Below, piece after piece: positions 33,194 through 64,000 of a stretch of DNA of 64,000 nt. Source of the stretch: Blastocatellia bacterium (GTDB lineage Bacteria; Acidobacteriota; Blastocatellia; UBA7656); NCBI GenBank assembly GCA_036277095.1, contig DASUNP010000067.1, forward strand, positions 67,551 through 131,550. Reading direction: 5' to 3'. Both the position numbers and the translations under genes were made by a program. The number at the start of each line of letters is the position of its first letter. Position 1 is the stretch's first letter. The notes beneath the pieces were generated by a model. It was given only the letters and a program-made list of their open reading frames with translations, was not told where the DNA came from and did not search any database.

Positions 33194-33223
33194 TTTCAAC
33201 CTATAGTAAACTGAGAAGTCATA

Positions 33224-38225: not shown

Positions 38226-38234
38226 CTCTATTCA

Positions 38235-42300: not shown

Positions 42301-42565
42301 CGGATTCTTCCACGACCCTTACGGAGACAGCCTCGCCGAATCGCTGATGAAGTGCGAGCGTGGTGGAGCCGTGGCGGCATGGGCTTCGTCGTCGCTGACA
42401 ACACCGGGCGGGCAGTCGGCAATGAATCAGCGGTTTTATCAGCTCTTGTTCGCGGGCAACCTGACGCTGGGCGAGGCGGCAATGAGGGCAAAGCTCGCCG
42501 CGAGTGACACGGACATTCGCCGGACCTGGATACTGTTCGGCGACCCGACATTAAAGATCAAATAA
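39320..42565 (+). CDS. secreted C25-family (gingipain-like, clan CD) cysteine peptidase, large multidomain (start trimmed to the signal peptide Met; the track starts at 39071)
   Basis: Signal peptide MNNIISRSIRLSLVAAFFMLSASSPAKAQ; catalytic His (NYLGHGS) and Cys (MMTCLNGFF); C-terminal ILFGDPTLKIK. Confidence 0.75.
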   Translation: MNNIISRSIRLSLVAAFFMLSASSPAKAQISLPTASPYTQSFDSLSTSATATLPADWRVDKIDGLVRTVGSFTTAGTVTEQIAGNGMAVNAANGIYNYGAGVANTATDRAAGWISSGTATRSGNLYARFINSTGASVSSLSISYDIEKYRNGSNTAGFRIEMFYSFDGATWTAAPANFLTSFPADANNNGFASAPGVIVSLTNQVLQVTIPNGSDFYLAWNYCVTSGTTTTNAQALGIDNFSVIVNTVTAVELLSFTASQSGDGVLLEWATGHEVDNLGFNIYREDGGKRARITPRIVAGSALLAGSGNALTAGRQYRWFDPAPGIEGNIDYWLEDIDLNGKVTLHGPITPAPGGKLSLRSDSLPLSSVQTDTRAWQRQVVVSNVGKNSHPHSAQESLNSLQTQWEIAAGPAVKITIKKDGWYRVTQPALVAAGLDPSRDPRLLRLFADAEEVPIIVRGGQKGRLEPTDVIEFYGATLDTPSTDRRVYWLTSGNQPGRRITILAGEAVKPTGGGSFPYTVERKERSVYFAALINGEAENFFGPVVTADPVAQEFRIENLDKGSTDKARLEVALQGVTDVTNVAPDHSVKVKLNGVEIGSVAFDGQARKITEIIFSNQLLLEGSNDITLVAEGGEMDVSLIDHIRLTYAHRFRADGDALELSAIGGEPITVTGFSQPAIRVFDITDPNDVQEMTPIVEAQGSEFAITFRANASGERRLLALVDHLAQAPFTVTANRPSTLNRAGNGANFIIITHGLFAAAMEPLKRLRQGQGLSATIVDVEDVYDEFSHGAHSPQAVKDFLARAATVWKKRPGWVMFAGDASFDPRDYLNLGESDFVPTKLIDTSGLETASDDWLADFDSDGLPEMAVGRLPVRTVGEAGAVIEKIMGYAQAGRAEGALMVADRNDGYDFEAASLSVKARLPADVIAQEVFRGRVDDATARQQIIDAARRGPKIVNYLGHGSAGTWRGDLLTSSDAAALQNSEGPSLFVMMTCLNGFFHDPYGDSLAESLMKCERGGAVAAWASSSLTTPGGQSAMNQRFYQLLFAGNLTLGEAAMRAKLAASDTDIRRTWILFGDPTLKIK

Positions 42566-42580
42566 TTCCTGTCGCCATTC

Positions 42581-42625
42581 GCTTGTGCGGCTCCGGTGCA
42601 TTTGCGAGTTAGGCGCGATTTCGCA
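42581..42625 (+). repeat. intergenic repeat copy R1 (consensus CGCTCCGGTGCATGTGCTTGTTAGG ... TTYGCA)
   Basis: Aligns with copies at 45171-45227, 45951-45995 and 47071-47115, all in the same orientation. Confidence 0.55.
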
Positions 42626-42877
42626 GGCCCGAACTGAGTCCTTCTCGTAAGAATGTTCTTACTGGCTTTGAATGCTCTGTCTACTTAATTACGTCATGTG
42701 TTATGTAAGAGTTTACCTGCTGCTTCTTGGCAAGGATAGAATTTTATTGCCGATGAATTATCAGAGTGCGATGAGCTTTAACAACGCAGCAGGCCGTCCG
42801 CGAGTATAGCTTATTCACGCCCTGAACACCTTCTGGCTACATGCTGGCCAATGTTACCGCCTAAAAGGAGAATTTCT

Positions 42878-44566
42878 ATGCCAACTAAAAAAGGAACTAC
42901 TAAAAAAGGAGCTTCTAAGAAAGGGGGCTCAAAAAAAGCTCCCTCTGCAAAGAAAGCCAAGACTGAAAAAAAGACCTATAGTGTATCTGGTGAGCACCTT
43001 GTGTCGAGCAAAGTAAAGACTGGTTACATTTCTGGAGAAACGTTTGGATTGAAAGAAGTAGCTTATTCAGCGGTTGATGGTCAGGCCATCTTTGAAGGCG
43101 ATATTGTTCTTGGCAGTGTCGCGGAAATGGACGCTATCAAGAAACAGGTTGAAAACCCTCAACCGGGCGCGGAGGCTGCGGCCATCGTTGTCGGCAGCCA
43201 ATTCCGCTGGCCCGACGGCGTAATGATCTTCCGCATCGATCCCAGTCTCCCAAATCAGCAAAGAGTCACTGATGCAATTCAGCATTGGCAGACAAACAGT
43301 AACGTCAGATTCAGGCAGCGAACTACTGAAACAAACTTTGTGACTTTCACACCGGGCGGAGGATGCAGCTCTCAGGTCGGCATGCGGGGCGGAGAGCAAT
43401 TTATTACACTCGGGGCAGGCTGCACGACCGGTAACACGATTCACGAAATTGGTCACGCTGCAGGGCTTTGGCACGAGCAAAGCCGTGAAGATAGGGACAG
43501 CTTCGTCACTATCAACTTTGCTAACATTCAGCCGGGGCTGGAACACAACTTTAATCAGCACATAACGGATGGCGATGACATTGGGCCTTATGATTACGGC
43601 TCAATTATGCACTATCCCCGCAATGCGTTCGCCATCAATCCAAATGTGGATACCATCACTCCAAAGCCCAATCCCAACGTGGCTATAGGTCAGCGCACAG
43701 GCTTGAGCGCTGGTGATCTTCGAGCAATAAACTCGATCTATCAAAGAAAGGCCATCCTTGGAGAAACCAGCAGTAACGGACCTGCGCTGACAACGAGGAA
43801 CAATCAGCTTCTTCTCAGTTGGACAGGAGTTGGAAATTTGCGCCTCAACTTTATGAGTTCAACTGATGGCCTCAATTACTCTAACAAGGTGACTCTGGGT
43901 GAAGTCTCTCCGGCAGCCCCTGCCCTTGCGGTTTTCCAAAACAGGTTCATAGTTGCCTGGATAGGCGTTGGCAACAACCGGCTTAACATCTTGCAGTCGA
44001 ACAACGGGCTGAGTTGGGGCAATAAAGTAACGCTCGGCGACACGTCACAGTCGTCTCCGGCGCTTGCCGTATTAGGCAACCAGCTTTTCATCGCCTGGCG
44101 TGGCGTCGGCAATAACCGGCTAAACGTAATGCGAAGCTCAAACGGTGTAAACTGGACGGGGAAGGTTACTCTCGGCGATACAACGACATCCGGCCCTGCG
44201 CTGGCAACGCTGGGGAGTCGACTACTGTTAGGATGGCGTGGCGTCGGCAATAACCAGCTAAATGTCATACAAAGCCCTAACGGTACGAACTTCACTGGCA
44301 AGGTTACGCTTGGCGAAACAACTATCTCCAAACCTGGCCTACATGCAAGCGGCGGACGCGCTTTACTCACCTGGCAAGGAGTCGGCAATCGGTTTCTCAA
44401 CGTGCTTGCCAGTAACAACGGGACAGCGTGGACGAGCAAGCAAACCTCATCACAGACTTGTATAGATGGACCGGTGATTTCAAACCTTGGCAACCGTCTC
44501 GTCTGGGGGTGGACTGGAACCGACAACGCTCACCGTCTCAACTCTATGCTTTTCAATGTTGTTTGA
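42878..44566 (+). CDS. astacin (M12A) zinc metalloprotease with a Lys-rich N-terminal tail and C-terminal tandem repeats (start set at the Met after a strong AGGAG RBS; the track gives 42851)
   Basis: HEIGHAAGLWHEQSREDRD zinc site, then the SIMHY Met-turn. N-terminus PTKKGTTKKGASKKGGSKKAPSAKKAKTEKK. Six ~44-aa repeats (W-x-G-V-G-N-x-x-L-N ... G-x-x-W ... K-V-T-L-G) from about 43770. Confidence 0.8.
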   Translation: MPTKKGTTKKGASKKGGSKKAPSAKKAKTEKKTYSVSGEHLVSSKVKTGYISGETFGLKEVAYSAVDGQAIFEGDIVLGSVAEMDAIKKQVENPQPGAEAAAIVVGSQFRWPDGVMIFRIDPSLPNQQRVTDAIQHWQTNSNVRFRQRTTETNFVTFTPGGGCSSQVGMRGGEQFITLGAGCTTGNTIHEIGHAAGLWHEQSREDRDSFVTINFANIQPGLEHNFNQHITDGDDIGPYDYGSIMHYPRNAFAINPNVDTITPKPNPNVAIGQRTGLSAGDLRAINSIYQRKAILGETSSNGPALTTRNNQLLLSWTGVGNLRLNFMSSTDGLNYSNKVTLGEVSPAAPALAVFQNRFIVAWIGVGNNRLNILQSNNGLSWGNKVTLGDTSQSSPALAVLGNQLFIAWRGVGNNRLNVMRSSNGVNWTGKVTLGDTTTSGPALATLGSRLLLGWRGVGNNQLNVIQSPNGTNFTGKVTLGETTISKPGLHASGGRALLTWQGVGNRFLNVLASNNGTAWTSKQTSSQTCIDGPVISNLGNRLVWGWTGTDNAHRLNSMLFNVV

Positions 44567-50680: not shown

Positions 50681-53600
50681 TTAATCGGCGGTCGCTTCTG
50701 CAAGCTCTTGCGGGCCTACGCTAAAATAAGCAGCGTCGGGGTGATGAAATACCAGCGCCGAGACCGAAGCTTCCGGCTCCATCATGAAGCCTTCCGTAAG
50801 CTCTATTCCAATCTCTTCGGGCCGCAGCAGGCGGAACAACCCCGCCTGTGATTCCAAATCCGGGCAAGCCGGATAGCCGAATGAATACCGCTTGCCGCGA
50901 TAACGCGCTTGAAAGATGGCTTGCCGCGACAGCCCTTCGGGGTCCGCAAATCCCCACATCGCGCGCAATCGCGCGTGCAGCCATTCGGCCGCCGCCTCTG
51001 CCGTTTCGAGCGCCAACGCCTGTAGCGCGTAAGACCTCAGATACTCGCCCTGCTGCTTTGCGGCTTCGGCAAGCTCGCGTATCCCTTCGCCCGCGGTCGT
51101 GGTAAACAGGGCTATGTGATCGCGGCCAGGATCAGGCGGCAAGACGAGATCGCTTAACGCCACGCCGTCGTCTTTCCGCTGGCGAGGGAAGACGAATGTC
51201 TCGGCTGGCTCTGTCGCGCCGCGCCCCGCGAAAACGTGCAGGCGGTTGCCTTCGGATTCGGCTTCGAAGAATTGCCAGACGACGCGGACGCTCATGGCCC
51301 CACGGCGACACTCTTCTTTCACACGCTCGATCTTCTCTTCGAGATCGCGCGCGCGGCGGTCGCCTGCCGCGATCAAATCGTTAAACCGCCCGCGCAACCC
51401 GAGGTGGCGGCCATAAAGCATCTGCGGGTTGATGTAGCTCCAGACTTCATCCAGATCCCTGACCTGTTCGACGTGACGCGAAAGGTCCGTCACAGGCGGT
51501 ATCGGAACGTCGAGAGAGATCTTTGTGCTGCGGCGGTCGGTTTCGGCCGCTACGACTTGCACTGTTTGCGCCGTCGCCCCCAGGTCTTTATCGAGCAATT
51601 CGGCTTCGAGCCGCGCGCGCTGGTCTGGGTCCATCAAGCGATTCAGAATATCGAGCCCGTGCATTGCGTCGTTCGCATAGACGACGGTGTTGCTGTAGGC
51701 GGGCGCGATCTTTGTGCGCGTGAAACGATCGGACAACGCCGCCCCGCCTACGAGCAGCGGGAGCCCTACGCCTGCGTCTTTCAAATCGCTTGCGGTTATG
51801 ACCATCTGCTGGGCCGATTTGACGAGCAGGCCGGAAAGCCCTATCGCGTCGGGGCTGTGCTCTCGCACGGCCTGTATCAAGACTTCGGGCGGGACCTTGA
51901 TGCCGAGGTTTATCACCTCGTAGCCGTTGTTCGACATAATGATGTCGACGAGGTTTTTGCCTATGTCGTGTACGTCGCCTTTAACGGTCGCAAGTATTAT
52001 TCGCCCGCGAAGGCTCGTGGCGCTCTTCTCCATGAACTGTTCAAGGTGAGAGACGGCCGTCTTCATCGCTTCGGCTGATTGTAGGACTTCGGCGACGATC
52101 AACTCGTTGTTGTTGAAGAGGCGACCGACTTCTCCCATCCCCGTCATCAGCGGCCCGTTGATGATGTCGAGCGGCGCGGCTTCTTTCAGCTTCAAGTCGA
52201 GGTCCGCGATCAAGCCTTCTTTTGTGCCCTCGATGATGTAGGCGGCCAGCCGCTCGTCGAGCGGAAGATCGGCTGTCGTCTTTTTGACGCGCGAAGTCGC
52301 GGCGCGAAAGTGAGCCGCGAACCGGGCTATCGGATCATCCCCGCGATTCCACAACAGGTCTTCGGCAAGCCGCCGCTCTTCGTCCGGTATCGAAGCGTAG
52401 CGTTCGAGCTTTTCTGAATTGACTATCGCAAGGTCGAGCCCGGCTTTTGTGCAATGATAAAGAAAGACGGAGTTCAACACCTCGCGGCCCGCGTCGGGCA
52501 GGCCGAACGACACGTTGCTTATGCCGAGAACGGTTTTGACATGAGGTATCTCTTGCTTGATGAGCCGCACGCCCTCAATGGTCTCGACCGCGCTCCCGAT
52601 ATAATTCTGATCCCCGGTTGCGCAGGGGAAGACCAGCGGGTCAAAGATAATGTCTTCCGCGCGTATGCCGTAGTCTTCGGTGAGCAATTTGCAAGAGCGG
52701 CGGGCTATCTCAAGCTTTCGCTCGCGCGTTATGGCCTGCGCCTGCTCTTTGTCTTCGTCGATGCAGCCGACGATCAGGGCCGCGCCGTATTTGCGCGCGA
52801 GCGGGGTGACGAGCTCGAACTTTTCAAGCCCGTCTTCGAGGTTGATAGAGTTGATGATCGATTTGCCCTGACAGTAGGTGAGCGACCGCTCGATCGCAAC
52901 AGAGTCTGTGGTGTCTATCATGATCGGCACTTTTACGAGCCGTATCATGCGGTCGTAAAAACGGTCTATGTCATACAGTTCGTCGCGGTCGGCGTTCTGG
53001 AGATTGACGTCGCAAATCTGCGCGCCACCTTTGACTTGCTGGCGCGCTATCTCGGCGGCCTCTTCGTATTTCTCTTCGGTGATGAGTCGCTTGAACTTGC
53101 GCGAGCCTACTTCGTTGGTCCGCTCGCCCACGATCAACGGGCGCTGGTCGTCGGATGCTTCGACAAAGTCTATGCCTGAGAAGAGGGTCCGGTGATGCTT
53201 CCGGTAAACGCGCGGGCGCTTGCCCTCGACCATCTGGGCGAGTTGGCGTATGTGCGCTGCGGTAGTCCCGCAACAGCCGCCAACAAGATTTATCCAGCCG
53301 TGATCTACGAACCGCTCAAGCGTTGAGGCCAGGCTTTCGGGAGTTTCAAGATAGATGCCGTCTTCGTTCGGCAGCCCCGCGTTCGGTATGCAAGAGACGC
53401 GCGTTTCGGCCTGCGCGGCTATCGATCGGATGTGATCGGTCATGAACTCAGGCCCCGTAGCGCAGTTCAGACCAACCGAAAGCAGGTCGGCGTGCATCAG
53501 CGAAGTGACGAAAGCTTCCGCGGTCTGGCCCGCCAGCATCGTGCCCGTCGCTTCGATCGTGCCGGAAACCATTATCGGCACTCTCACTCCCAGTTCATCA

Positions 53601-54157
53601 AACACGCGCCATATTCCGATGAGCGCCGCCTTCACGTTGCGCGTGTCCTGCTGCGTCTCGACTATCAGAAGGTCTGCGCCGCCCGCGACGAGCCCGGCAG
53701 CCTGATCGTGGAAAGCGTCTACGAGTTGCTCGAACGTGACGCCGCCCGTCACCGATATAGCTTTTGTAGTAGGCCCCATCGAGCCTGCGACGAATCGCGG
53801 GCGGGCTGGTGAAGATAATTCTTTGGCGGCTTGCCGGGCCAGCCGCGCCGCAATTTCATTCTGTTCGCGCGCGCGGTCTTCGAGGCCGTATTCGGCCAGC
53901 ACTATCCCGGTGCTGCCGAACGTATTTGTCTCGATGATGTCTGCGCCCGCGTTGAGGTAGCCGCGATGTATATCGAGCACGACGTCGGGCCGCGTAAAGA
54001 CCAGGTTCTCGTTGCAGCCTTCCAGATGCGGGCCGCCAAAATCCTCCGCCTGCAGATTGCGCTCTTGAATCGCGGTGCCCGTCGCGCCGTCGAGCACGAG
54101 AATGCGCTCGGCCAGCAACTCTTTCAGCATCTGTGTGCGATGTTGTCTGTCTTCCAT
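50681..54157 (-). CDS. metH: cobalamin-dependent methionine synthase
   Basis: 1158 aa; Hcy-binding (ILVLDGATGTAIQ), pterin-binding, B12-binding and AdoMet-reactivation regions. Confidence 0.9.
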   Translation of the reverse strand: MEDRQHRTQMLKELLAERILVLDGATGTAIQERNLQAEDFGGPHLEGCNENLVFTRPDVVLDIHRGYLNAGADIIETNTFGSTGIVLAEYGLEDRAREQNEIAARLARQAAKELSSPARPRFVAGSMGPTTKAISVTGGVTFEQLVDAFHDQAAGLVAGGADLLIVETQQDTRNVKAALIGIWRVFDELGVRVPIMVSGTIEATGTMLAGQTAEAFVTSLMHADLLSVGLNCATGPEFMTDHIRSIAAQAETRVSCIPNAGLPNEDGIYLETPESLASTLERFVDHGWINLVGGCCGTTAAHIRQLAQMVEGKRPRVYRKHHRTLFSGIDFVEASDDQRPLIVGERTNEVGSRKFKRLITEEKYEEAAEIARQQVKGGAQICDVNLQNADRDELYDIDRFYDRMIRLVKVPIMIDTTDSVAIERSLTYCQGKSIINSINLEDGLEKFELVTPLARKYGAALIVGCIDEDKEQAQAITRERKLEIARRSCKLLTEDYGIRAEDIIFDPLVFPCATGDQNYIGSAVETIEGVRLIKQEIPHVKTVLGISNVSFGLPDAGREVLNSVFLYHCTKAGLDLAIVNSEKLERYASIPDEERRLAEDLLWNRGDDPIARFAAHFRAATSRVKKTTADLPLDERLAAYIIEGTKEGLIADLDLKLKEAAPLDIINGPLMTGMGEVGRLFNNNELIVAEVLQSAEAMKTAVSHLEQFMEKSATSLRGRIILATVKGDVHDIGKNLVDIIMSNNGYEVINLGIKVPPEVLIQAVREHSPDAIGLSGLLVKSAQQMVITASDLKDAGVGLPLLVGGAALSDRFTRTKIAPAYSNTVVYANDAMHGLDILNRLMDPDQRARLEAELLDKDLGATAQTVQVVAAETDRRSTKISLDVPIPPVTDLSRHVEQVRDLDEVWSYINPQMLYGRHLGLRGRFNDLIAAGDRRARDLEEKIERVKEECRRGAMSVRVVWQFFEAESEGNRLHVFAGRGATEPAETFVFPRQRKDDGVALSDLVLPPDPGRDHIALFTTTAGEGIRELAEAAKQQGEYLRSYALQALALETAEAAAEWLHARLRAMWGFADPEGLSRQAIFQARYRGKRYSFGYPACPDLESQAGLFRLLRPEEIGIELTEGFMMEPEASVSALVFHHPDAAYFSVGPQELAEATAD

Positions 54158-54226: not shown

Positions 54227-54775
54227 TCACGGTTCGCGCTCCTTACCTAACATCTGGCGAATCTCACCGCGGCGGTCGCGCGCAACGGTCGCCATCGTCA
54301 GGTAGATGGTCGAGAACGCGTTCTGGTTGAGCGGCTGCGCCGTGCTTATCATGTACTTGTAGCCGATGTCTTCCTCGTTATCGACGAAGAAGCTGCCTAT
54401 AGTTATCGCGTCGTTGGCGCCGAGCAAGAACTTATAAACATCTTCGCGGTTAGAGGCTTTCTTAAGGCTGCCAAAGTTGTAGACATAAAAGCCGAGCAGC
54501 CCCTTGCGGCGGTCATTCACGATGACTATGGTGGTCTTTCCGCCGCCCCTGGGGTCGGTGTAATTAGAGACGACCATGTCGGCAGTGCTCTTGCTTTGAT
54601 CCACGGTTGCGCCCACATGCTGCAAGTACCGCTTGACCGAATCGATCAGGGTGAGCCTGGGGGCGGGGCGGGCCGCGCGCGGGGCCTGGGTCGGCGGCGC
54701 CGGGTCCTGGGCCAGAGCCCCGGCGAAGGCGAGCGCCACCACAAGCGGAGCTGTTGAAATCATGCTTTTTTTCAT
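54227..54775 (-). CDS. YbjN-domain secreted protein
   Basis: 182 aa, signal peptide, paralogue of the next gene. Confidence 0.5.
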   Translation of the reverse strand: MKKSMISTAPLVVALAFAGALAQDPAPPTQAPRAARPAPRLTLIDSVKRYLQHVGATVDQSKSTADMVVSNYTDPRGGGKTTIVIVNDRRKGLLGFYVYNFGSLKKASNREDVYKFLLGANDAITIGSFFVDNEEDIGYKYMISTAQPLNQNAFSTIYLTMATVARDRRGEIRQMLGKEREP

Positions 54776-54817: not shown

Positions 54818-55339
54818 TCAATTCTTCGTTTCGCTCTTGCGCATGTGCCCTTCGAGTATCGGCGTGTATTCATCGCTGATGCGCAGCAACTCCATGACCG
54901 CGACGCGGAACGACTCGAACCCGACGCCGTTCTCGGTCGTGAAAGTGAAGCGCGCGCCTATGTCCCCCTGGTTATCGACAAAGAAGGTGGCGAACGCGCG
55001 GTGGTTGGCATCGAGCAATCGCTGGAGCGTCTTTTCGCGGTCCGCAGCGCGCGACATGTTGAAGTAGCCTATGGGCTGCTTGCTGTAGGCCATGAGCACT
55101 AGCGTATGGTCCTCGCCGCGCACTTCGATGTATAGGTCCACGCGGTCCGCGTGGTCGTTGTCGGAGCGCGTCACTACCAGGGCGTTGCTGCTTTTCGGAT
55201 GCGGGACGTACTTCATCCCCATCTTGTCGAGATAGCCGCGAAGCACCCCGACGGTAGTTCCTCGCTGGTCGTTGCCGATGGGCGCAAGCGCCAACAGCGC
55301 GCCCGCCAGGATCGGCATAGCAATTCTTTTCCTCATCAA
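54818..55339 (-). CDS. YbjN-domain secreted protein (tandem paralogue)
   Basis: 173 aa, signal peptide; similar to 54227-54775 (FFVDNxxDIG ... ). Confidence 0.5.
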   Translation of the reverse strand: MMRKRIAMPILAGALLALAPIGNDQRGTTVGVLRGYLDKMGMKYVPHPKSSNALVVTRSDNDHADRVDLYIEVRGEDHTLVLMAYSKQPIGYFNMSRAADREKTLQRLLDANHRAFATFFVDNQGDIGARFTFTTENGVGFESFRVAVMELLRISDEYTPILEGHMRKSETKN

Positions 55340-55451
55340 TCAACTAACTCCAATCCGTTTAGATTACATTCAAAGAACGTTTGGTTCGTCGCTCAAACTT
55401 TTTAAGCTAACACTGCTGCACTCGGTATTTCAAGCATAGAGAAAAGAGTAT

Positions 55452-55545
55452 CTCACCGCAGAGACGCAGAGAACACAGAGTTCACGCAGAGCAGAATTAT
55501 CTTCTCTCTGCGCCCGCTCTGTGTTCTCTGCGTCTCTGCGGTGAG
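55452..55545 (-). terminator. 29-bp perfect inverted repeat hairpin (ctcaccgcagagacgcagagaacacagag ... ctctgtgttctctgcgtctctgcggtgag), 16 bp downstream of the metF-fusion stop
   Basis: Seen directly; T-rich flanks on both sides; probable intrinsic (bidirectional) terminator. Confidence 0.65.
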
Positions 55546-55560
55546 GTTTGCCTTTCCATC

Positions 55561-57390
55561 TCATAAAACACTGAAAACGTCGAGCGCGTATTGCACCTTG
55601 CCGAATGGCGCGGAGACTTGAACGCCCTGCACAACGTCCATAACGTCGAGCAGGGTTTCGCGCGCGATCGCGAGGCCTTCTTCGCGCGCGGCGTCTTTAT
55701 CCGTGATGCCGTGCATGCGCTCAAGCACCGAGTCGGGCACGACCACGCCGGGCACTTCGTTAGCCAAAAACTCCGCATTGCGGTAGCTCACAAGCGGCCA
55801 GATGCCCGCGATCACAGGGATGCAGCAATGCTCTATGCGCTTTAGAAAACTTCTTAGCTGCTTTACGTCGAAAGTCGGTTGCGTGATGGCGAACTCTGCC
55901 CCGGCTTCCACCTTCCACTCGAACCGCCGCAGCTCATAATCTAAATCTACGGCGCAAGGATTGACTCCGACGCCCATGTAAAAAGATGTCGGGCCGCCGA
56001 TGGGGTTCCCGCCAATGTCGAGCCCGTGGTTGAGCCGGTTGACCATGTTGACGAGCCCTATCGAGTCTATGTCAAAGACGGCAGTCGCTTCGGGGTACGG
56101 CCCCATCTTGGGCGGGTCGCCTGTGATGATCAGCAAATTGCGCAACCCCATAGCGGCCGCGCCCAACAGATCGCTCGTCATCCCTAACAGGTTTCGGTCG
56201 CGGCAGCAGTAATGCACGACCGCCTCTATCCCTACTTGCTGCTCGATCAACGTAGAGACGGCCAGCACACCCATTCGCGATTGCGCGCGCGGGCCGTCGG
56301 GGACATTGACCGCGTCGACGCCCGATTCTTTAAGCAGCCTTACGCCTTCGAGCATCTTTGACGGGTCGCACCCTTTGGGCGGGACTATCTCGACGGAAGT
56401 GACGAACTCGCCCGCCGAAATCTTTCGAGCGAACCTACTCTTCTCTTCGCGCGGAGTGACGGCGATATTTGCGGGCGTCTCTTCGGGCACAAAGACGCGC
56501 ACGCTTGAGCGGCCCGGCGAGAGCGCCGCCACGGCGTTTGCGATCTGCTTTATGTGATCGGGCGTCGTCCCGCAACAGCCGCCCACGAACTTTGCGCCGG
56601 ATTGTATGAGGCGTTTGGCGTACTTCGCCATGTATTCGGGCGAAGCCATGTAAAACATCCGCCCATCGACTTGTCGCGGCAGCCCGTTGTTGGGCTGCGT
56701 CGAGAGCTTGCGCCGCGTGACCTGATGCATCTTCTCGATCGCTTCGAGCATGGCGTGCGGCCCCACGGAGCAGTTGAGCCCGATCACGTCCGCGCCCCAC
56801 TCGTCTAACCTCTTTGTGAAAATCTCGGGCGAAGTGCCGTAGCTCGTCGAGCCGTCATTTTGTATGGTCATCTGCGCTACAATCGGCAGGTCGCAGACGG
56901 AGCGGACGGCCAGGATTGCCTGATGAATCTCCGCCACGTCGGAAAATGTTTCGAGGATGAACAGATCCACGCCGCCTTCAAGCAACGCCTCGGCCTGCTC
57001 GCGAAATATGGCCTGGGCCTCTTCGCTCGACGTAGGCCCGTAAGGCTCTATGCGAATGCCGAGCGGCCCGATGGCTCCCGCGACGAACGCGCGCCCGCAC
57101 GCGGCTTCATTTGCGAGCCGTGCGCCCGCGTTGTTGATCTGATAAATCCTGTCTTCCAGCCCGTAGCCGGTCAGCTTCGCGCGGTTAGCGCCGTAGGTGT
57201 TCGTCTCGACAATGTCCGCGCCCGCCTTAACATAATCGCGGTGGACGTTCAAAACCAGATCGGAGCTTGTCAAATTCAGCTCGTCGTAACATCGATTGAT
57301 GTAGACGCCGCGCGAATAGAGCATCGTGCCCATCGCGCCGTCGAAGACGTAGACTCGATCATCCGTGACAGCGTCTCGAAAATCTTTCAT
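55561..57390 (-). CDS. metF: bifunctional homocysteine S-methyltransferase / 5,10-methylenetetrahydrofolate reductase
   Basis: 609 aa; N-terminal Hcy-binding domain (VFDGAMGTMLY ... GGCCGT), C-terminal MTHFR domain. Confidence 0.85.
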   Translation of the reverse strand: MKDFRDAVTDDRVYVFDGAMGTMLYSRGVYINRCYDELNLTSSDLVLNVHRDYVKAGADIVETNTYGANRAKLTGYGLEDRIYQINNAGARLANEAACGRAFVAGAIGPLGIRIEPYGPTSSEEAQAIFREQAEALLEGGVDLFILETFSDVAEIHQAILAVRSVCDLPIVAQMTIQNDGSTSYGTSPEIFTKRLDEWGADVIGLNCSVGPHAMLEAIEKMHQVTRRKLSTQPNNGLPRQVDGRMFYMASPEYMAKYAKRLIQSGAKFVGGCCGTTPDHIKQIANAVAALSPGRSSVRVFVPEETPANIAVTPREEKSRFARKISAGEFVTSVEIVPPKGCDPSKMLEGVRLLKESGVDAVNVPDGPRAQSRMGVLAVSTLIEQQVGIEAVVHYCCRDRNLLGMTSDLLGAAAMGLRNLLIITGDPPKMGPYPEATAVFDIDSIGLVNMVNRLNHGLDIGGNPIGGPTSFYMGVGVNPCAVDLDYELRRFEWKVEAGAEFAITQPTFDVKQLRSFLKRIEHCCIPVIAGIWPLVSYRNAEFLANEVPGVVVPDSVLERMHGITDKDAAREEGLAIARETLLDVMDVVQGVQVSAPFGKVQYALDVFSVL

Positions 57391-57423: not shown

Positions 57424-57513
57424 AAAAGCAAAAGCCCCGCGCTAAACTGCGCGGGGGCCGATTCCGGGCTGTTTAGCAGTTTTTTACGTGGAGCAATTAC
57501 CATAAATCGCCAC
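57424..57513 (-). promoter_or_regulatory. conserved leader element copy A (candidate SAM-responsive riboswitch/attenuator) ending in an intrinsic terminator directly upstream of the metF-fusion start
   Basis: RNA sense: GUGGCGAUUUAUGGUAAUUGCUCCACGUAAAAAACUGCUAAAC...GCCCCCGCGCAGUUUAGCGCGGGGCUUUUGCUUUUU, then 43 nt, then AUG. Two more copies lie upstream of the thrC-like gene. Confidence 0.6.
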
Positions 57514-57574
57514 ATTAAATTTTCAACGCTGCAAGGATACACCCTGGCAACGCTCAAGTCAATCATGACGGTCG

Positions 57575-58954
57575 TTAATCGAACACCGCAGGGTCGGCTT
57601 CCTTGAAGAACCGATCGTGCAGCGCGCGGACCACATTCTCAACCTCGCTTTCGTCTATGACGAAGGTAAGGTTTATCTCGCTCGCGCCCTGGCTGATCAT
57701 GTTGACGTTGGTCGTTTCGATCGCGCGAAACAGTTGCGCGGCGACGGCCGGCTTGAATTTCAGGTTGTCGCCGATGACGCAGACGATCGCTTTGCCCGTC
57801 TCTACGGAAACCTGCGCGATGGCTTCGAGGTCACGCTTGATCACTGCAAGGCGGTCCGTGCTGTCGAGCGTCATCGAGACCGAAACTTCGGACGTGGTGA
57901 CCACGTCGACGGAAGTCTGGTGCTGGTCGAAGACCTCGAATATCTTGCGCAAGAATCCGTACGCCATCAGCATCCTCGTCGATGTGACGTTGACTATAGT
58001 CACGCCGCGCTTGAAGGCGATCGATTTTATGAGGTTGCTCGAAGGGCGCGGCTCGCGGATGATCAACGTTCCCTCACAGGACGGATTGCGCGTGTTGTAG
58101 ATGTGCACGGGTATTCCCCGCTCGACGGCGGGCATCACAGTGCTCGGGTGCAGCACCTTCGCGCCGAAGTATGAAAGCTCCGCCGCCTCCGCGAAAGAGA
58201 GCACGCGGATGCGCCTCGCCCGCGAGACGACGCGCGGGTCCGCCGTCATAAGGCCGTCAACGTCCGTCCAAATTTCTATCGCTTCCGCGCTGAGAGATGC
58301 GCCTATTATCGCGGCGGAATAATCCGACCCGCCGCGCCCGATCGTCGTGGTCACGCCTTCCGCAGTCGAGCCGATGAAGCCTTGCGCTACAGGCACAACC
58401 TGCCGCCCTATCAAGGGCAGCAGCGCCGCGCGCGCGCGCGTTTCGGTCTCTCGCATGTTGGGCGCGGCCACAGTGAAGTGATCGTCCGTGACGATGAAGC
58501 GGCGCGAGTCGACAAGCTCTGCCCGCGCGCCGCGCGAATGGAGCGCGGCGGTCACAATCAGCGAGGAGAGTCGCTCGCCGAACGAGACGATCGCGTCCTG
58601 GCTGCGCGGGGAAAGCTCGCCGAGCGTAGCGACCGAGCGGGCCAGGCTTTCAAGCTCGGCGAAATTATCTTCGATGGCGCGCCTCACCTCATCAATCAAA
58701 TGATGATCGGACGGGAGCAGGTCGCGCGACGTGGCGAGGTGTCGTTCGCGCAACTCGTCAATAATGGCCCCGGCTTCATCGAAACGCCTATCCTTTGCCG
58801 ACTCGGCCAGCCGCAGCAGCGCATCTGTGACGCGCGCCATCGCCGACACGATCACCACGGGCGAGCTAGCCATGCGGCTGCGGACGATCTCGACTGCTTG
58901 ATTTATCGCGGCTGCGTCCCCAACCGACGTGCCGCCGAATTTCATCACGATCAT
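57575..58954 (-). CDS. lysC: aspartate kinase
   Basis: 459 aa; MIVMKFGGTSVGDAAAI N-terminus; C-terminal ACT domains. Confidence 0.9.
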   Translation of the reverse strand: MIVMKFGGTSVGDAAAINQAVEIVRSRMASSPVVIVSAMARVTDALLRLAESAKDRRFDEAGAIIDELRERHLATSRDLLPSDHHLIDEVRRAIEDNFAELESLARSVATLGELSPRSQDAIVSFGERLSSLIVTAALHSRGARAELVDSRRFIVTDDHFTVAAPNMRETETRARAALLPLIGRQVVPVAQGFIGSTAEGVTTTIGRGGSDYSAAIIGASLSAEAIEIWTDVDGLMTADPRVVSRARRIRVLSFAEAAELSYFGAKVLHPSTVMPAVERGIPVHIYNTRNPSCEGTLIIREPRPSSNLIKSIAFKRGVTIVNVTSTRMLMAYGFLRKIFEVFDQHQTSVDVVTTSEVSVSMTLDSTDRLAVIKRDLEAIAQVSVETGKAIVCVIGDNLKFKPAVAAQLFRAIETTNVNMISQGASEINLTFVIDESEVENVVRALHDRFFKEADPAVFD

Positions 58955-58966
58955 AAGTAATCCACT

Positions 58967-59734
58967 TCATCCGCACATCACGGAGCCGCCGTTGACGTTT
59001 ATGACTTCGCCCGTGATGTGCCGCGCCAGGTCCGACGCGAGAAAGAGGATCGGGCCTGCGACATCATCCGCGCAAGCCACGCGGCCAAGCGGAATGCCGC
59101 GATTGATCTTCTCAAGCTCCGGCGGGTCGCGCAAAGGTTCGGCAGACATGTCAGTATCGACCCAGCCCGGCGCAACGGAGTTAACCGTTATACCATAAGA
59201 ACCGAGCTCAGCGGCCAGGGATTTAGTAAAAGAGATTATGCCGCCCTTCGAAGCAGCGTAATGCGAATGAAAAGCCTCGCCGCGCTGGCCCGCAGTCGAC
59301 GACAGCGTGACGATACGGCCCGACCGCTGATGCTTCATTATCTTTGCCGCAAAGTGGCAGCAGAGAAAAACGCCTTTCAGGTTCACGTCAATCGTCTCTT
59401 GCCAGCTCTGCTCGTCGAGACGGTCGACCGCCGCGCCGGTCCACACGCCAGCGTTTGCGATTACGATGTCTAAGCGGTCGAACTCCGCCAGCGCCTGCTC
59501 GAACATCGTGCGGACATCGTCTGCGCGCGAGATATCTGCCCGCACAGCGATGGCGCGCGCTCGAAACGAGCGCGCGCTGGCCGTGACGCGGGCGGCTTCG
59601 GCCTCGTGGTTGAAATAGTTTACTACCAGCGAGGCCCCGGCTTCGGCAAGCCTTAGAGCCGTCGCCGCGCCGATGCCGCGCGAAGCGCCTGTGACGAGCG
59701 CAACTTTACCATTCAGATCTATCATGTTCCCCTC
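58967..59734 (-). CDS. SDR-family oxidoreductase (FabG-like); start trimmed to MIDLNGK after a GGGAGG RBS (the track gives 59782)
   Basis: KVALVTGASRGIGAATALRLA Rossmann motif; YxxxK. Confidence 0.75.
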   Translation of the reverse strand, partial: EGNMIDLNGKVALVTGASRGIGAATALRLAEAGASLVVNYFNHEAEAARVTASARSFRARAIAVRADISRADDVRTMFEQALAEFDRLDIVIANAGVWTGAAVDRLDEQSWQETIDVNLKGVFLCCHFAAKIMKHQRSGRIVTLSSTAGQRGEAFHSHYAASKGGIISFTKSLAAELGSYGITVNSVAPGWVDTDMSAEPLRDPPELEKINRGIPLGRVACADDVAGPILFLASDLARHITGEVINVNGGSVMCG

Positions 59735-59783
59735 CCATAAACTAAGCTGTCGCGTGGAAGTGGCTCCGGGAGCCATTTTCACG

Positions 59784-60059
59784 TCATCCGCCTGCGATTG
59801 CCGGGACTATAGATACTTCCGCGCCATCCGTCACCTGCGTCGACAGGTTATCGAGAAAGCGCACGTCTTCGCCGTCGACATAGATGTTGATGAAGCGGCG
59901 CAACCCGCCGCCCTCTTCGCACAATCGTGAGCGAAAGCCCGGGAAACGTTTGTCGAGCCGGTCGATCAATTCATCTACAGAAGAGGCTTCGACCTCTACT
60001 GTATCAACGTCTCCAGTGAGCCGGCGAAATGGTGTTGGTATGCTTACAGTAAGTGACAT
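59784..60059 (-). CDS. MoaD/ThiS-family sulfur-carrier protein
   Basis: 91 aa ending in ...VPAIAGG (C-terminal Gly-Gly); immediately downstream of the ThrC-like gene. Confidence 0.75.
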
Positions 60060-60086
60060 AATCTTTCCTCCCTCGTGTGAGTCTTC

Positions 60087-61325
60087 TTAAGCCGTAGCCG
60101 CAAAGCCCGTTAACGCTTTCTCGAACTGTGCGACTCGCGGCTCGATGACTATGGGCTGCTCGCTTTTGGCGGCCTCCTGCGTCTTGAGGCCATTGCCCGT
60201 GATCGCGATGACCGTCAGATCATCGGGGCTAATGCGGCCCTGCTCGATCAGCTTTTTGGTCACGGCGACGGTGACGCCGCCGGCAGTTTCGGTAAAGACA
60301 CCTTCCGTCTCTGCCAGCAGCCGTATGCCGTCGACGATCTCGGTATCCGTTGCATCTTCGGCCCAGCCTCCGGTTTCGGCGATAACGCGAGCCGCTTGAT
60401 AACCGTCGGCAGGGTTGCCGATGGCGAGCGACCGAGCGATGGTCGCGGGCTTGACTGGCCGAATTTCTGTCGAGTTCCGTTTCACGGCTTCAACTATGGG
60501 ATTGCACCCGGCGGCTTGTGCTCCGAAGATTCGCGTCGAGGCTTCGCCTTCCAGCAACGAGAGGCGCTCGAACTCCTTCAAGCCCTTGTAAACCTTTGTG
60601 ATGAGCGAGCCGCCGGCCATCGGCGCAATGACGGCTGTGGGAGCGCGCCAGCCGAGACTTTCTGCTATCTCATAACCGACGGTCTTCGACCCTTCGCCAT
60701 AAAAAGGTCTGAGATTAACATTCACAAATCCCCACGGGTGACGGTCGGCTATCTCGACGCACAGCCGGTTCACGTCGTCGTAGTTGCCGCGCAAGGCGAT
60801 CACCCGCGCGCCATAAATAGCGGTCGCGGTGATCTTGGCCGGTTCGAGGTCTTCGGGAATCAGTATGTAGGCGGGCAATCCTGCGGCTGCTGCGTTAGCG
60901 GCGACAGAGTTCGCGAGGTTTCCAGTCGATGCGCAGCCGACGGCTCGGAGACGGAACTCAAGCGCCTTGTTGATGGCGACCGCCGCGACGCGGTCTTTGA
61001 ACGACAGCGTCGGCGAGTTGACGCTGTCGTTTTTTATATAGAGGTTTGAAACGCCGAGCCTTGAAGCCAATCGGTCCGCGCGAATGAGCGGTGTCGCGCC
61101 GCTGGTTCGACCGACGACAGGCTCGCGGTCGAGCGGCAACAGCTCGCGGTATCGCCATAAACTCTTTTCACGTGATTCGATCTTGCGGCGCGAAAGCGAG
61201 CGCCGAATCGCGTCGTAATCGTAATCGACCTCAAGCGGGGCGAAGCAGTCTTCGCACCCGGCCACGAGCCGCTTTTCGTAAGCGCGGCCACACTCTGTGC
61301 AACGAAGTCCTTTCACAAAACTCAT
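60087..61325 (-). CDS. threonine-synthase-like PLP enzyme (MetM-like; sulfur-carrier-dependent homocysteine synthase candidate)
   Basis: 412 aa; N-terminal Cys4 zinc-ribbon (CTECG...CEDC), PLP lysine region SFKDR; paired with a MoaD-like gene and preceded by tandem met-type leaders. Confidence 0.65.
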   Translation of the reverse strand: MSFVKGLRCTECGRAYEKRLVAGCEDCFAPLEVDYDYDAIRRSLSRRKIESREKSLWRYRELLPLDREPVVGRTSGATPLIRADRLASRLGVSNLYIKNDSVNSPTLSFKDRVAAVAINKALEFRLRAVGCASTGNLANSVAANAAAAGLPAYILIPEDLEPAKITATAIYGARVIALRGNYDDVNRLCVEIADRHPWGFVNVNLRPFYGEGSKTVGYEIAESLGWRAPTAVIAPMAGGSLITKVYKGLKEFERLSLLEGEASTRIFGAQAAGCNPIVEAVKRNSTEIRPVKPATIARSLAIGNPADGYQAARVIAETGGWAEDATDTEIVDGIRLLAETEGVFTETAGGVTVAVTKKLIEQGRISPDDLTVIAITGNGLKTQEAAKSEQPIVIEPRVAQFEKALTGFAATA

Positions 61326-61343: not shown

Positions 61344-61436
61344 ACGAAAAGCCCCGCGCCAAACTAGCGCGGGGCCTGATGCCTTCGGGGCCGTTTAGCA
61401 GTTTTTTACGTGGAGCAAGTCGCCTTAAATCGCCAC
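61344..61436 (-). promoter_or_regulatory. conserved leader element copy B (proximal) with terminator + AAGGAGG RBS before the thrC-like start
   Basis: RNA sense: ...UUGCUCCACGUAAAAAACUGCUAAACGG...GCCCCGCGCUAGUUUGGCGCGGGGCUUUUCGUUUUUAAGGAGGUAAAGCUAUG. Confidence 0.6.
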
Positions 61437-61463
61437 GCGCGTCGAATTGTTAAAGACCAAATG

Positions 61464-61555
61464 AAAACGCCCCGCGCTAAACCAGCGCAGGGCGTCAAAA
61501 CTCCTCAGCGGTTTAGCACATGTTTTACGTGGAGCAATTTGCTTTAAATCACCAC
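61464..61555 (-). promoter_or_regulatory. conserved leader element copy C (distal, tandem to copy B)
   Basis: RNA sense: GUGGUGAUUUAAAGCAAAUUGCUCCACGUAAAACAUGUGCUAAACCGC...GCCCUGCGCUGGUUUAGCGCGGGGCGUUUUC. Confidence 0.55.
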
Positions 61556-61860
61556 GATCAGTTTCAGAAACCGCAGAGTACACCCGCGCGGCCCGTGAAG
61601 TCAAGGAGATTCATCAGAACTTTTATTCCGCGTAGATCGTTTGCCACAGCACTTGACGCAGAGCGCGGCGAGTGCTATATCTCAATTTGCTTAAGGTTCT
61701 GTTAAAGGCTTATGACCCGAATGACGAACTCAATCTGTTGCATCTGTTGTTGCGCGCCAGCGGCGCGCCGGGCAAAGCCTTTAGTGGAGATTTATATCCG
61801 TAGAACCTGAATCTGATTTTTAGATAAGAGTTTTCATTAAACCCACTATCGGCGACGCCG

Positions 61861-62721
61861 GTGGTGGGTTTTTCGTTTTTGGTCGCTCTTTTATCGGCTA
61901 TGAGATTGATGGCGAGAAAACTTGGGAAGGTCTACCTGATAGGCGCGGGGCCGGGCGACCCGCTTCTTCTCACGCTCAAGGCGGCCAAGGCCATAGCGAC
62001 GAGCGACGTGATCGTTTACGACTACCTTGTAAACCCCGAAATCCTGGCCCACGCGCGGCGAGGAGCAGAATTGATCTACGTCGGCAAACGCGCGGGCGAG
62101 CAATCTATCTCACAATCGGAGATCAACCGCATTCTGATCGAGCGCGCAAATCGAGGCGAGATGGTCGCGCGCGTGAAGGGCGGCGACCCGTTCATCTTCG
62201 GTCGCGGCGGCGAAGAAGCCGAAGCCCTCGCAGAGGCAAACATCAAATGGGAAGTCATACCGGGCGTGTCGTCAGGCGTGGCCGCCGCTGCATACGCAGG
62301 GATTCCGCTGACGCATCGCGGCTACGCTTCGAGCGTCGCTTTCATCACGGGCCACGAAAGCAGCAAAGCCGGGGGCGGGCTCGACTGGTCCGCGCTCGCG
62401 CACTCTGCCGATACGCTCGTGGTCTTTATGTGCGCGGAGACGATAACCACCATCGCCGGACACCTCATCCGGGCGGGGCGCGCGCCTTCGACCCCTGTCG
62501 CGATCATTCGATGGGGCACCTACGAATCATGCCAGGAAGTTTACTCAACCTCGCTCGATGCGCTCGCGCGCACGGACGAGCAGACAGGCGAAGAGGCGCG
62601 GATCAAGATTGAGCCGCCCGCCATCGCAATCATCGGCAGCGTTGTCTCTCTCAAAGAAAAGCTCCACTGGTTTGGCCGGCCCGCAATCGATATAGAGCAG
62701 GGCGAACCTGTCGGAGTGTAG
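61861..62721 (+). CDS. cobA: uroporphyrinogen-III C-methyltransferase (siroheme branch)
   Basis: LGKVYLIGAGPGDPLLLTLKA and VKGGDPFIFGRGGEE SUMT motifs. The true start is probably an internal Met (MRLMARK...). Confidence 0.85.
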   Translation: MVGFSFLVALLSAMRLMARKLGKVYLIGAGPGDPLLLTLKAAKAIATSDVIVYDYLVNPEILAHARRGAELIYVGKRAGEQSISQSEINRILIERANRGEMVARVKGGDPFIFGRGGEEAEALAEANIKWEVIPGVSSGVAAAAYAGIPLTHRGYASSVAFITGHESSKAGGGLDWSALAHSADTLVVFMCAETITTIAGHLIRAGRAPSTPVAIIRWGTYESCQEVYSTSLDALARTDEQTGEEARIKIEPPAIAIIGSVVSLKEKLHWFGRPAIDIEQGEPVGV

Positions 62722-62733: not shown

Positions 62734-63489
62734 ATGGATTTCAGTCAAACGCTCGCTTTTTCGGTCGAGGACGCTGACAGGCTCGAAGCGGTCGCCACGC
62801 TGCTTGAAAAGTGCGCGCCTCAGGAGATTCTTAGATGGGCCTTCAACCAGTTCGGCACCGGAGTCGCAATCGCGACGGGGTTCGGCGCCGAAGGCGTGGC
62901 GATGATCGACATGGCAGTGAAGATCAACCCGCGCCCTAATATCTTTTTCATCGATACGGGTTTTCTCTTCCCCGAAACATACGCGCTGCGTCGCCAGATA
63001 GAAGACCGTTACGGAATAGAGATTCGCGCCCTTCGGTCCGAGCTTAGCCCCGAGTCACAAGAGATGGAATTCGGCCCGCGCCTCTGGTCGCGCGACCCGG
63101 ACCTCTGCTGCCGCATCAGAAAACTCGAACCTTTGAAAGAGACTCTTAACGGCTTGACCGCGTGGATGACCGCAATCCGGCGCGATCAGACGCAGGCGCG
63201 CGCGCGGGCGCGCGTGATCGAGTGGGACTACCTCTGGCAACTGGTGAAGATCAACCCGATTGCCACGTGGACCAAACGTGATGTGTGGGACTACATCGTA
63301 AAAAACCATGTTCCTTATAACCCGCTGCACGACGATGGCTACCCGAGCCTCGGCTGCACACACTGCACGCGGCGCACGATCGAAGGCGAGCCTGAGCGCG
63401 CGGGCCGCTGGTCGGGTCACCAAAAGACAGAGTGCGGGCTCCATGCCTTGCCTCAGACGACGATCGCCTCAAGCAGCTTTGAAGTTTGA
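62734..63489 (+). CDS. cysH: assimilatory adenylyl-sulfate (APS/PAPS) reductase
   Basis: 251 aa; PP-loop-like region, CC...CxxC iron-sulfur cysteines (LCCRIRK, GCTHCT) and ECGLH motif, indicating an APS-reductase type. Confidence 0.85.
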   Translation: MDFSQTLAFSVEDADRLEAVATLLEKCAPQEILRWAFNQFGTGVAIATGFGAEGVAMIDMAVKINPRPNIFFIDTGFLFPETYALRRQIEDRYGIEIRALRSELSPESQEMEFGPRLWSRDPDLCCRIRKLEPLKETLNGLTAWMTAIRRDQTQARARARVIEWDYLWQLVKINPIATWTKRDVWDYIVKNHVPYNPLHDDGYPSLGCTHCTRRTIEGEPERAGRWSGHQKTECGLHALPQTTIASSSFEV

Positions 63490-63519: not shown

Positions 63520-64000
63520 ATGAAAACGGATGACACGGGTTTTGGAACATCTGCTAAAGGCTTGGTTATATGGCTTACGGGACTTTCGGGCGCAGGCAAA
63601 ACTACGCTCGCCCGCGCGATCAGGCAAGAGCTTTTACAGACGGGCCGGACGGTCGAGCTTCTCGACGGCGACGAAGTGCGCGAGAACCTCAGCCACGGAC
63701 TCGGCTTTAGCAAGGAAGACCGCGACCGCAACATAGGCCGTATCGGATTCGTCGCGCGGCTGCTGGCGCGCAATGGTGTAACGGTGCTCGTCTCAGCCAT
63801 CTCGCCTTACCGGCAGTCGCGCGATGATGCTCGCCGGTTGATAGAGGGCGACGGCGTCCGCTTCCTTGAGGTCTACGTCCGTTGCCCGCTTCAAGTGCTC
63901 ATCTCTCGTGACGTGAAGGGGCTGTACAAAAAAGCTCTCGCGGGCGAGGTGCGCCACTTCACAGGGATCAGCGATCCTTACGAAGCGCCGCTCGCGCCCG
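63520..64000 (+). CDS. cysC: adenylyl-sulfate kinase, partial (runs off the window end)
   Basis: [34 protein letters not shown] ... P-loop; GGAGGGGAG RBS upstream; not in the ORF track because it is truncated. Confidence 0.85.

Follow-up and report, generated by a model that had tools for sequence, protein, structure and literature searches.

A gene pair that encodes a ThrC-like enzyme dependent on pyridoxal 5′-phosphate (PLP) and a small sulfur-carrier protein was analyzed in a 64,000-nt stretch of DNA (the window) from a Blastocatellia bacterium of the phylum Acidobacteriota (GenBank assembly GCA_036277095.1, contig DASUNP010000067.1, positions 67,551–131,550 of the forward strand). All coordinates refer to the window. 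The pair lies in a compact methionine region of the minus strand that extends from approximately 61.6 kb down to 50.7 kb and has the order tandem leaders, ThrC-like gene, carrier gene, short-chain dehydrogenase/reductase (SDR) gene, aspartate kinase gene, third leader, gene for a methyltransferase fused to methylenetetrahydrofolate reductase (MTHFR), inverted repeat, two genes for YbjN-like proteins and metH. The comparisons presented here make it likely that the pair is a homocysteine synthase system of the MetM/MetO type in this uncultured, soil-type acidobacterium of the class Blastocatellia. It most likely adds a well-supported member to a pathway already described and does not represent a new kind of system.

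In Streptomyces albulus, MetM and MetO were reported to convert O-phosphohomoserine to homocysteine (Hasebe et al. 2024, Appl Environ Microbiol 90:e01247-24, cited in PMC12172450, doi 10.1101/2024.10.14.618325). As outlined for GapMind 2026 (doi 10.1101/2024.10.14.618325), which already includes the MetM/MetO pathway, the ThrC homologue of S. albulus works with a thiocarboxylated carrier and is aided by MoeZ and Mec, and MetM is often misannotated as threonine synthase. A riboswitch responding to S-adenosylmethionine (SAM) is mentioned upstream of S. albulus metM (PMC12172450).

The ThrC-like enzyme and its carrier

The two genes of the pair are as follows:

60087–61325, minus strand: candidate MetM-like PLP enzyme of the ThrC family, 412 amino acids (aa), with an N-terminal Cys4 zinc ribbon
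59784–60059, minus strand: candidate MetO-like sulfur-carrier protein of the ThiS/MoaD family, 91 aa, C-terminus ...AIAGG

The first-pass annotation, made from the letters of the window, had described a threonine synthase homologue with an N-terminal Cys4 ribbon followed by a 91-aa protein ending in Gly-Gly, and both were found as described, with matches to PALP, TIGR00260 and ThiS. The Cys4 ribbon corresponds to two CxxC motifs in the translation (CTEC, residues 9–12; CEDC, residues 24–27). The gene starts with an ATG directly preceded by an AAGGAGG ribosome-binding site, which itself follows the hairpin of the proximal leader. The enzyme matched Pfam PALP with 227 bits and has the Schiff-base lysine motif S108-F109-K110-D111-R112, the STGN loop and other core residues in common with ThrC. 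The fold is clear from the sequence, which makes the protein a ThrC-family PLP enzyme of fold type II. It scored below the cutoff of the closest equivalog model, PRK08197 (282 versus 303 bits), and matched the cysteate synthase model weakly (TIGR03844; 66.7 bits, cutoff 325) and the CysK/CysM models negligibly (39 bits, cutoff 387). Its best database matches were proteins from Blastocatellia metagenome-assembled genomes (MAGs), and every named homologue returned was labeled “threonine synthase.”

Comparison with canonical threonine synthases separated the window enzyme from them. Four solved bacterial ThrCs (2ZSJ, 1UIM, 6CGQ, and 2D1F) matched the window enzyme with 163–202 bits and from residue ~56 onward only, whereas the canonical ThrC encoded at a Nitrospirota locus (L018) scored 430–508 bits against the same four structures. 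Five loci, three from Nitrospirota and two from Nostoc, were found to hold a ribbon-bearing relative together with a separate canonical ThrC of 356–366 aa without the ribbon. A neighbor-joining tree rooted on the canonical ThrCs of these loci placed the window enzyme deep inside a ribbon-bearing, carrier-linked clade and outside the canonical group, the nearest relatives being other Acidobacteriota and Gemmataceae sequences. The possibility raised in the first-pass annotation that the protein might cluster with canonical ThrC was thus not borne out by either tree or bit scores. At 36 positions, both the clade of the window enzyme and canonical ThrC are conserved but by different residues, for example STGN-LAN versus STGN-TSA and an arginine moved from position 209 to 206 in the NxNxRP loop. 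The window enzyme resembles canonical ThrC in fold, SFKDR lysine motif, STGN loop and many core residues, and probably in substrate too, but differs in its extra N-terminal Cys4 ribbon of ~55 aa, its separate clade and its gene context.

The N-terminal ribbon was also considered as a hallmark of MetM, and this was rejected, as deeper relatives with 33–47% identity carry it too. No carrier gene was found beside the three deeper ribbon-bearing relatives inspected (L083, L084, and L165; 37–47% identity), so the ribbon alone is not diagnostic. A relative with 49–51% identity still has a carrier neighbor. No second ThrC-like or MoaD-like gene was found in the 64-kb window by a six-frame search with hidden Markov models (HMMs).

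The carrier gene begins 27 nt 3′ of the ThrC-like gene on the same strand, and its product matched the Pfam ThiS family (PF02597) with 57.8 bits (cutoff 22.5). Its best solved relatives were 4N6E_B (73 bits), an unnamed chain of the ThiS/MoaD family, and CysO of Mycobacterium tuberculosis (3DWG_C; 65 bits), to which it aligns over the full length, while matches to MoaD were much weaker (22–34 bits). By these scores, the predicted carrier is closest to the CysO-type thiocarboxylate carriers and not to MoaD. Since it ends exactly at Gly-Gly, no proteolytic or other C-terminal trimming would be needed.

Related loci and their gene neighborhoods

Scanning genomes with an alignment built from diverse relatives yielded 80 loci from many phyla with 54–90% identity, of which L002 (DATFGQ01) is 90% identical, and gene neighborhoods were counted over 82 loci with relatives of at least 54% identity. 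These came from Acidobacteriota, Planctomycetota, Cyanobacteria, Nitrospirota, Desulfobacterota, Verrucomicrobiota and others. In 71 of the 82 loci, the enzyme gene is directly followed on the same strand by a MoaD-like gene; in five such a gene lies farther downstream, and in six there is none. The enzyme–carrier pair was also found in an Actinomycetota MAG (L027), whereas no carrier gene was adjacent to the Micromonospora homologue. A published Microcystis homologue that lies beside a metO-like gene was reported to be 51.6% identical to MetM (PMC12172450), and the Microcystis locus of our set (L068) fell into the same clade as the window enzyme, with 55% identity to it.

Among the 76 carriers, 46 end exactly at Gly-Gly, 21 have a short extension past it and nine have longer extensions or are fusions. 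At L009, L010, L012, L048 and other loci, several of them from Desulfobacterota, the carrier ORFs (open reading frames) are 171–177 aa long, with ~80 extra C-terminal residues past the MoaD-like domain. These fused carriers recall the 168-aa “MoaD related protein” of Thermus (1V8C), and exposure of their Gly-Gly would need processing.

Clustering of ORFs around the enzyme gene, with identities of the neighboring genes confirmed by NCBIfam and Pfam, showed a rhodanese-ThiF E1-like activating enzyme at 16 loci, a JAMM protease at nine, a cysteine desulfurase at seven, and sulfite-reductase-like genes and aspartate kinase at six each. In the Nitrospirota locus L018 the gene order is enzyme, carrier, a 78-aa ORF, canonical thrC, HomK and aspartate kinase. 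Its HomK matched the “proposed homoserine kinase” model TIGR02535 with 567 bits and is a likely source of O-phosphohomoserine. The same gene order was found in L021, where the kinase-like gene was recognized by N-terminal similarity only, and in L063 from Terriglobia thrB and aspartate kinase are located near the enzyme gene. With such neighbors, the enzyme falls at the branch point of O-phosphohomoserine and next to a system for sulfur-carrier activation.

In L018, L021 and a third Nitrospirota locus, L014, which is too short to contain the kinase genes, the MetM-like gene, the carrier gene and canonical thrC form one apparent operon, so that two would-be consumers of O-phosphohomoserine are encoded side by side. 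The 78-aa ORF between the carrier gene and thrC in L018 showed no family match. Locus L009 (9288–12846) contains the MetM-like pair and, after it, genes for a rhodanese-MoeB/MoeZ E1, a JAMM protease and a CysM-like cysteine synthase. In L004 (1–1487), a CysM/CysK-like gene of the PALP domain family, a JAMM gene and a second ThiS-like gene are all located nearby on the opposite strand. At these two loci, synthesis of cysteine and of homocysteine may both draw on a single carrier-activation system.

SAM-II-like leaders and the other genes of the window

Two leaders in tandem precede the pair and a third one precedes the methyltransferase/MTHFR gene:

61501–61562, minus strand: distal SAM-II-like aptamer, first of the tandem (RF00521, 22.3 bits; own covariance model, 75.3 bits)
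61466–61496, minus strand: terminator-like hairpin of the distal leader, a 14-pair stem with nine GC pairs and then a T-run, which forms in the minimum-free-energy fold
61383–61443, minus strand: proximal SAM-II-like aptamer (RF00521, 27.5 bits, E = 1.6e-4 in a local search; own model, 76.2 bits)
61349–61377, minus strand: terminator-like hairpin of the proximal leader, a 13-pair stem and then a T-run
57562–57534, minus strand: promoter-like site of the third leader
57461–57520, minus strand: third SAM-II-like aptamer, 5′ of the methyltransferase/MTHFR gene (RF00521, 22.8 bits; own model, 72.6 bits)
57435–57456, minus strand: terminator-like hairpin of the third leader, GC-rich and followed by a T-run

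The presence of two tandem leader copies before the pair, of the same kind as the leader of the metF-type gene, had been noted in the first-pass annotation and agrees with these positions. At the gathering threshold, Rfam gave no match in the window, and the leaders surfaced in an E-value search only. Their conserved GAUUU, CUUGC and GCUAAA core aligns to the Rfam SAM-II consensus, and the scores remain below the RF00521 threshold because the P1 loop is 3–4 nt shorter than in the consensus. Annotation based on Rfam would miss this SAM-II-like variant with a short P1 loop. P1 and a 3-bp pseudoknot between GGC in the loop and GCC in the 3′ tail were paired in 99% of cells over 14 copies and in 97% over 23 copies, compared to at most 46% in a control in which the partners were slid. 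P1 and the pseudoknot covary, as three pairs were changed on both sides (such as GGC/GCC to AGC/GCU and CAAC/GUUG). The predicted architecture, a P1 hairpin with an H-type pseudoknot, is that of SAM-II.

Twenty further SAM-II-like copies were found in L001–L005 and in the metagenome contigs L085–L090, 5′ of the orthologous operon, and the leaders were in tandem in nine of the ten loci for which the upstream region was available. Our covariance model detected no further copies in the window, including the regions 5′ of metH and of cobA, or in the 77 remaining loci, and none turned up elsewhere in 1.2 Mb of related loci, so the element appears restricted to a Blastocatellia-type lineage within this sample. 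Pairing of GCUAAAC in the 3′ tail with GUUUAGC at the apex of many terminators was considered as an antiterminator and rejected, since L004 and L005 do not conserve it and the terminator would probably outcompete it. Tandem SAM-II riboswitches have been described before as 44 doublets, for which the term “pseudo-cooperative” was used (PMC9481103). The window resembles these doublets in having two consecutive SAM-II-type aptamers 5′ of a methionine gene, with a separate intrinsic terminator for each, but its copies are sub-threshold for RF00521 and, among the loci examined, belong to the Blastocatellia-type lineage only.

Directly 5′ of the homologous enzyme gene, SAM-I riboswitches above the threshold were found in Micromonospora (69 bits), in a planctomycete (82 bits) and in another acidobacterium (69 bits). 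Micromonospora, the sole source of an actinobacterial homologue examined, thus has SAM-I where the window has SAM-II-like elements. The occurrence of two unrelated classes of SAM-sensing RNA on one enzyme clade argues strongly, from the side of regulation, for a role in methionine over threonine synthesis.

The other genes of the methionine region and the divergent genes beside it are the following:

58967–59782, minus strand: FabG-like SDR (adh_short_C2, 227 bits), the true start of which may be an ATG near 59725
57575–58954, minus strand: monofunctional aspartate kinase of LysC type (NF006570, 530.6 bits; cutoff 455)
55561–57390, minus strand: bifunctional homocysteine S-methyltransferase/MTHFR of YitJ type (NF006396, 767 bits; cutoff 453)
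50681–54157, minus strand: cobalamin-dependent methionine synthase MetH (TIGR02082, 1175 bits; cutoff 1011)
61861–62721, plus strand: cobA, divergent from the leaders
62734–63489, plus strand: cysH, divergent sulfate-assimilation gene
63520–64000, plus strand: cysC, truncated by the end of the window

Family models identified all of the flanking genes that had been named at first, i.e., aspartate kinase, cobA, cysH, cysC, and metH. The divergent arrangement of sulfate-assimilation genes is also present in L001 and L003.

The SDR gene, which had gone unmentioned in the first-pass annotation, lies between the carrier gene and the aspartate kinase gene, and the best PDB matches of its product were FabG proteins. 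All SDR orthologues found with at least 57% identity were located within the riboswitch-controlled operon, at ten loci (the window, L002, L003, L005, and L085–L090; positions 9541–10356 in L002, 9545–10303 in L003, and 7125–7895 in L005). A further 74 relatives with at most 61% identity were found elsewhere in metagenomes, unlinked to the ThrC-like enzyme; the nearest of them stand in varied, unrelated contexts that are not fab operons and give no functional clue. In L005, the SDR gene is located between the riboswitches and the enzyme gene and not after the carrier gene, so its association with the operon survives rearrangement. We speculate that, among the steps of the pathway for which the operon has no gene, the only one that the SDR could plausibly fill is the reduction of aspartate semialdehyde to homoserine. 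We tentatively suggest, as a doubtful proposal, that it might be a dedicated, previously unrecognized enzyme of the methionine branch, most plausibly a SAM-repressed, non-orthologous homoserine dehydrogenase. If so, the SDR and the adjacent LysC-type aspartate kinase would be a split analogue of MetL of Escherichia coli.

Directly after the stop codon of the methyltransferase/MTHFR gene, an inverted repeat was found (55441–55556; 51-nt arms with 82% complementarity and a 14-nt spacer), which gave spurious Rfam matches to plant microRNA precursors on both strands. Between this gene and metH, two paralogous small proteins with hydrophobic, signal-like N-termini are encoded on the minus strand (54227–54775 and 54818–55339), one of which showed a weak YbjN match; the 182-aa member of this pair is kept at the same position in L002. 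Outside of the methionine region, the window contains a polysaccharide-type gene cluster (981–27940, minus strand) with about ten glycosyltransferases of the GT4 and GT2 families, unusually many methyltransferases (four of FkbM type and three of class I), GDP-mannose dehydratase-like genes and a chain-length regulator of the tyrosine-kinase type. A second cluster (29447–44566, plus strand) encodes an asparagine-synthase-like protein, a 2-oxoglutarate-Fe(II) oxygenase, a methyltransferase resembling protein arginine methyltransferases, two PF14907 nucleotidyltransferases, an ABC exporter, a 1164-aa peptidase C25 protein and an astacin. Its first genes resemble a gene set for lasso peptides or other ribosomally synthesized and post-translationally modified peptides.

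Proposed pathway, alternative explanations, and implications

In the proposed mechanism, an E1-like MoeZ/ThiF-rhodanese enzyme encoded outside the window would adenylate the C-terminal Gly-Gly of the carrier, leading to its thiocarboxylate. The ThrC-like enzyme would bind O-phospho-L-homoserine on Lys110, eliminate phosphate to give a vinylglycine-type intermediate like the one formed by ThrC, and then take the carrier thiocarboxylate at C-gamma in place of water. Homocysteine would be freed directly or by a JAMM protease, encoded elsewhere, that hydrolyzes the carrier–homocysteine adduct, and would then be methylated by MetH with methyl-tetrahydrofolate from the MTHFR domain of the neighboring bifunctional protein. 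The aspartate kinase of the operon would feed in the carbon skeleton and the divergent cobA-cysH-cysC genes the reduced sulfur. At high SAM, the two serial SAM-II-like riboswitches, each with its own terminator, would shut the operon off, with SAM binding at either leader favoring termination and two checkpoints in series sharpening the response; the third riboswitch would control the methyltransferase/MTHFR gene. We infer this substrate and this chemistry, i.e., formation of homocysteine from O-phosphohomoserine and the carrier thiocarboxylate, from sequence comparison, and the E1, the protease, a homoserine kinase and a separate thrC would then be encoded elsewhere in the genome.

The first-pass annotation had proposed a MetM/MetO-like route to homocysteine, and this proposal is supported by the fact that, across phyla, the enzyme clade goes together with a sulfur-carrier gene, with genes for carrier activation and with SAM riboswitches. 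The likeness to MetM/MetO of S. albulus comprises a ThrC-homologous PLP enzyme beside a small Gly-Gly carrier, the placement in a methionine context, the upstream SAM riboswitch and the misannotation as threonine synthase. Differences are that the window comes from a member of the Blastocatellia within Acidobacteriota, that its riboswitches are SAM-II-like and in tandem, that its operon also includes the SDR and aspartate kinase and that its carrier ends exactly at Gly-Gly. With CysM/CysO/Mec/MoeZ of M. tuberculosis, which makes cysteine from O-phosphoserine, the window pair would share the logic of a phospho-amino acid, a PLP enzyme and a carrier thiocarboxylate. In addition, the window carrier is CysO-like and loci related to the window carry the same E1 and JAMM partners. 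However, the window enzyme belongs to the ThrC family and not to CysK/CysM, and the expected chemistry is a γ-replacement on a homoserine ester and not a β-replacement on a serine ester. Protein-thiocarboxylate-dependent homocysteine synthesis is also known from Wolinella succinogenes (HcyS/HcyF/HcyD/MetY), where O-acetylhomoserine is used by a MetY-type enzyme of fold type I. A sulfur-carrier thiocarboxylate is the sulfur donor of homocysteine in that system, as proposed here, but the window enzyme is a fold-type II ThrC homologue and its likely substrate is O-phosphohomoserine.

Several observations weigh against this interpretation. The enzyme passes the NCBI equivalog model for thrC (TIGR00260; 268 bits, cutoff 167). 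Its identity to S. albulus MetM is roughly 50%, an estimate obtained through intermediates only, namely the relatives from Microcystis and from actinobacteria (52%); when an actinobacterial homologue (P0127) was used as the seed of a search aimed at S. albulus MetM, only Micromonosporaceae were returned. The Microcystis homologue was reported to form some threonine from O-phosphohomoserine, as a weak activity, and to deaminate threonine in vitro, and no rise in methionine was observed in vivo (PMC12172450). All three leaders score below the RF00521 gathering score (22–28 versus 36 bits; best relative, 32.7 bits). No conserved antiterminator was identified in the leaders examined, so the direction of the switch is deduced from the functions of the genes only. 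As already stated in the first-pass annotation, the window contains neither an E1 nor a JAMM gene: six-frame searches of the 64 kb with HMMs from the related loci detected no E1, JAMM or cysteine desulfurase gene, and Pfam scans of window ORFs of at least 180 aa detected no E1 or JAMM, nor any gene of the acyl-homoserine route. Homoserine kinase, hom and asd genes were not found in the window either.

The TIGR00260 match, the in vitro activities of the Microcystis homologue and the ribbon-bearing relatives without a ThiS neighbor would all fit a genuine or bifunctional threonine synthase, i.e., a ribbon-bearing ThrC variant whose MoaD-like neighbor serves another pathway such as molybdenum cofactor or thiamin synthesis. 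A bifunctional enzyme in particular is kept in consideration, at low probability, because of the weak threonine synthase and deaminase activities and the unchanged methionine in the Microcystis case. We consider this explanation improbable: the carrier gene is located directly downstream across phyla and its product is CysO-like rather than MoaD-like, a canonical ThrC co-occurs in five loci, the similarity of the window enzyme to solved ThrCs is far below that of true ThrCs, and the predicted control is by SAM riboswitches and not by threonine signals.

A carrier thiocarboxylate or another sulfur nucleophile might act on a different phospho-amino acid, giving cysteine from O-phosphoserine as in CysM/CysO, or cysteate. 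The CysO-like carrier, the adjoining sulfate-assimilation genes, the weak cysteate synthase match and the CysM-like or PALP-domain genes beside E1 and JAMM in L009 and beside JAMM in L004 are in line with such a reaction. The latter genes are, however, additional to the ThrC-like enzyme, which argues for two distinct reactions at these loci. Considering also the negligible CysK/CysM scores, the aspartate kinase in the operon, the relatives located beside ThrB or HomK and canonical ThrC, each of them an enzyme that makes or uses O-phosphohomoserine, and the downstream genes for homocysteine methylation, a different substrate is very improbable. Equally remote is direct sulfhydrylation of O-phosphohomoserine with free sulfide as in plants, the carrier being dispensable, regulatory or protective; the window without E1 and JAMM genes, the six loci without a nearby carrier and Micromonospora without an adjacent one, and the adjacent genes for assimilation of sulfite to sulfide would agree with it, but conservation of the carrier gene right after the enzyme gene is strong, genes for E1, JAMM and cysteine desulfurase recur in the neighborhoods, and the published system, as outlined for GapMind 2026 (doi 10.1101/2024.10.14.618325), needs a thiocarboxylated carrier.

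Assignment of the window pair to the MetM/MetO type likely corrects a “threonine synthase” annotation and extends the pathway to Blastocatellia, which would be unsurprising to a specialist aware of the 2024 work. The enzyme–carrier pair is widespread across phyla and repeatedly located beside enzymes that make or use O-phosphohomoserine, and the presence of two SAM riboswitch classes in different lineages is evidence from regulation that independently backs the function assigned to the Streptomyces system. If the assignment is true, this uncultured Blastocatellia bacterium makes homocysteine via a protein thiocarboxylate and not from an acyl-homoserine with sulfide or cysteine, which would have a bearing on metabolic reconstruction and on prediction of auxotrophy in soil Acidobacteriota.

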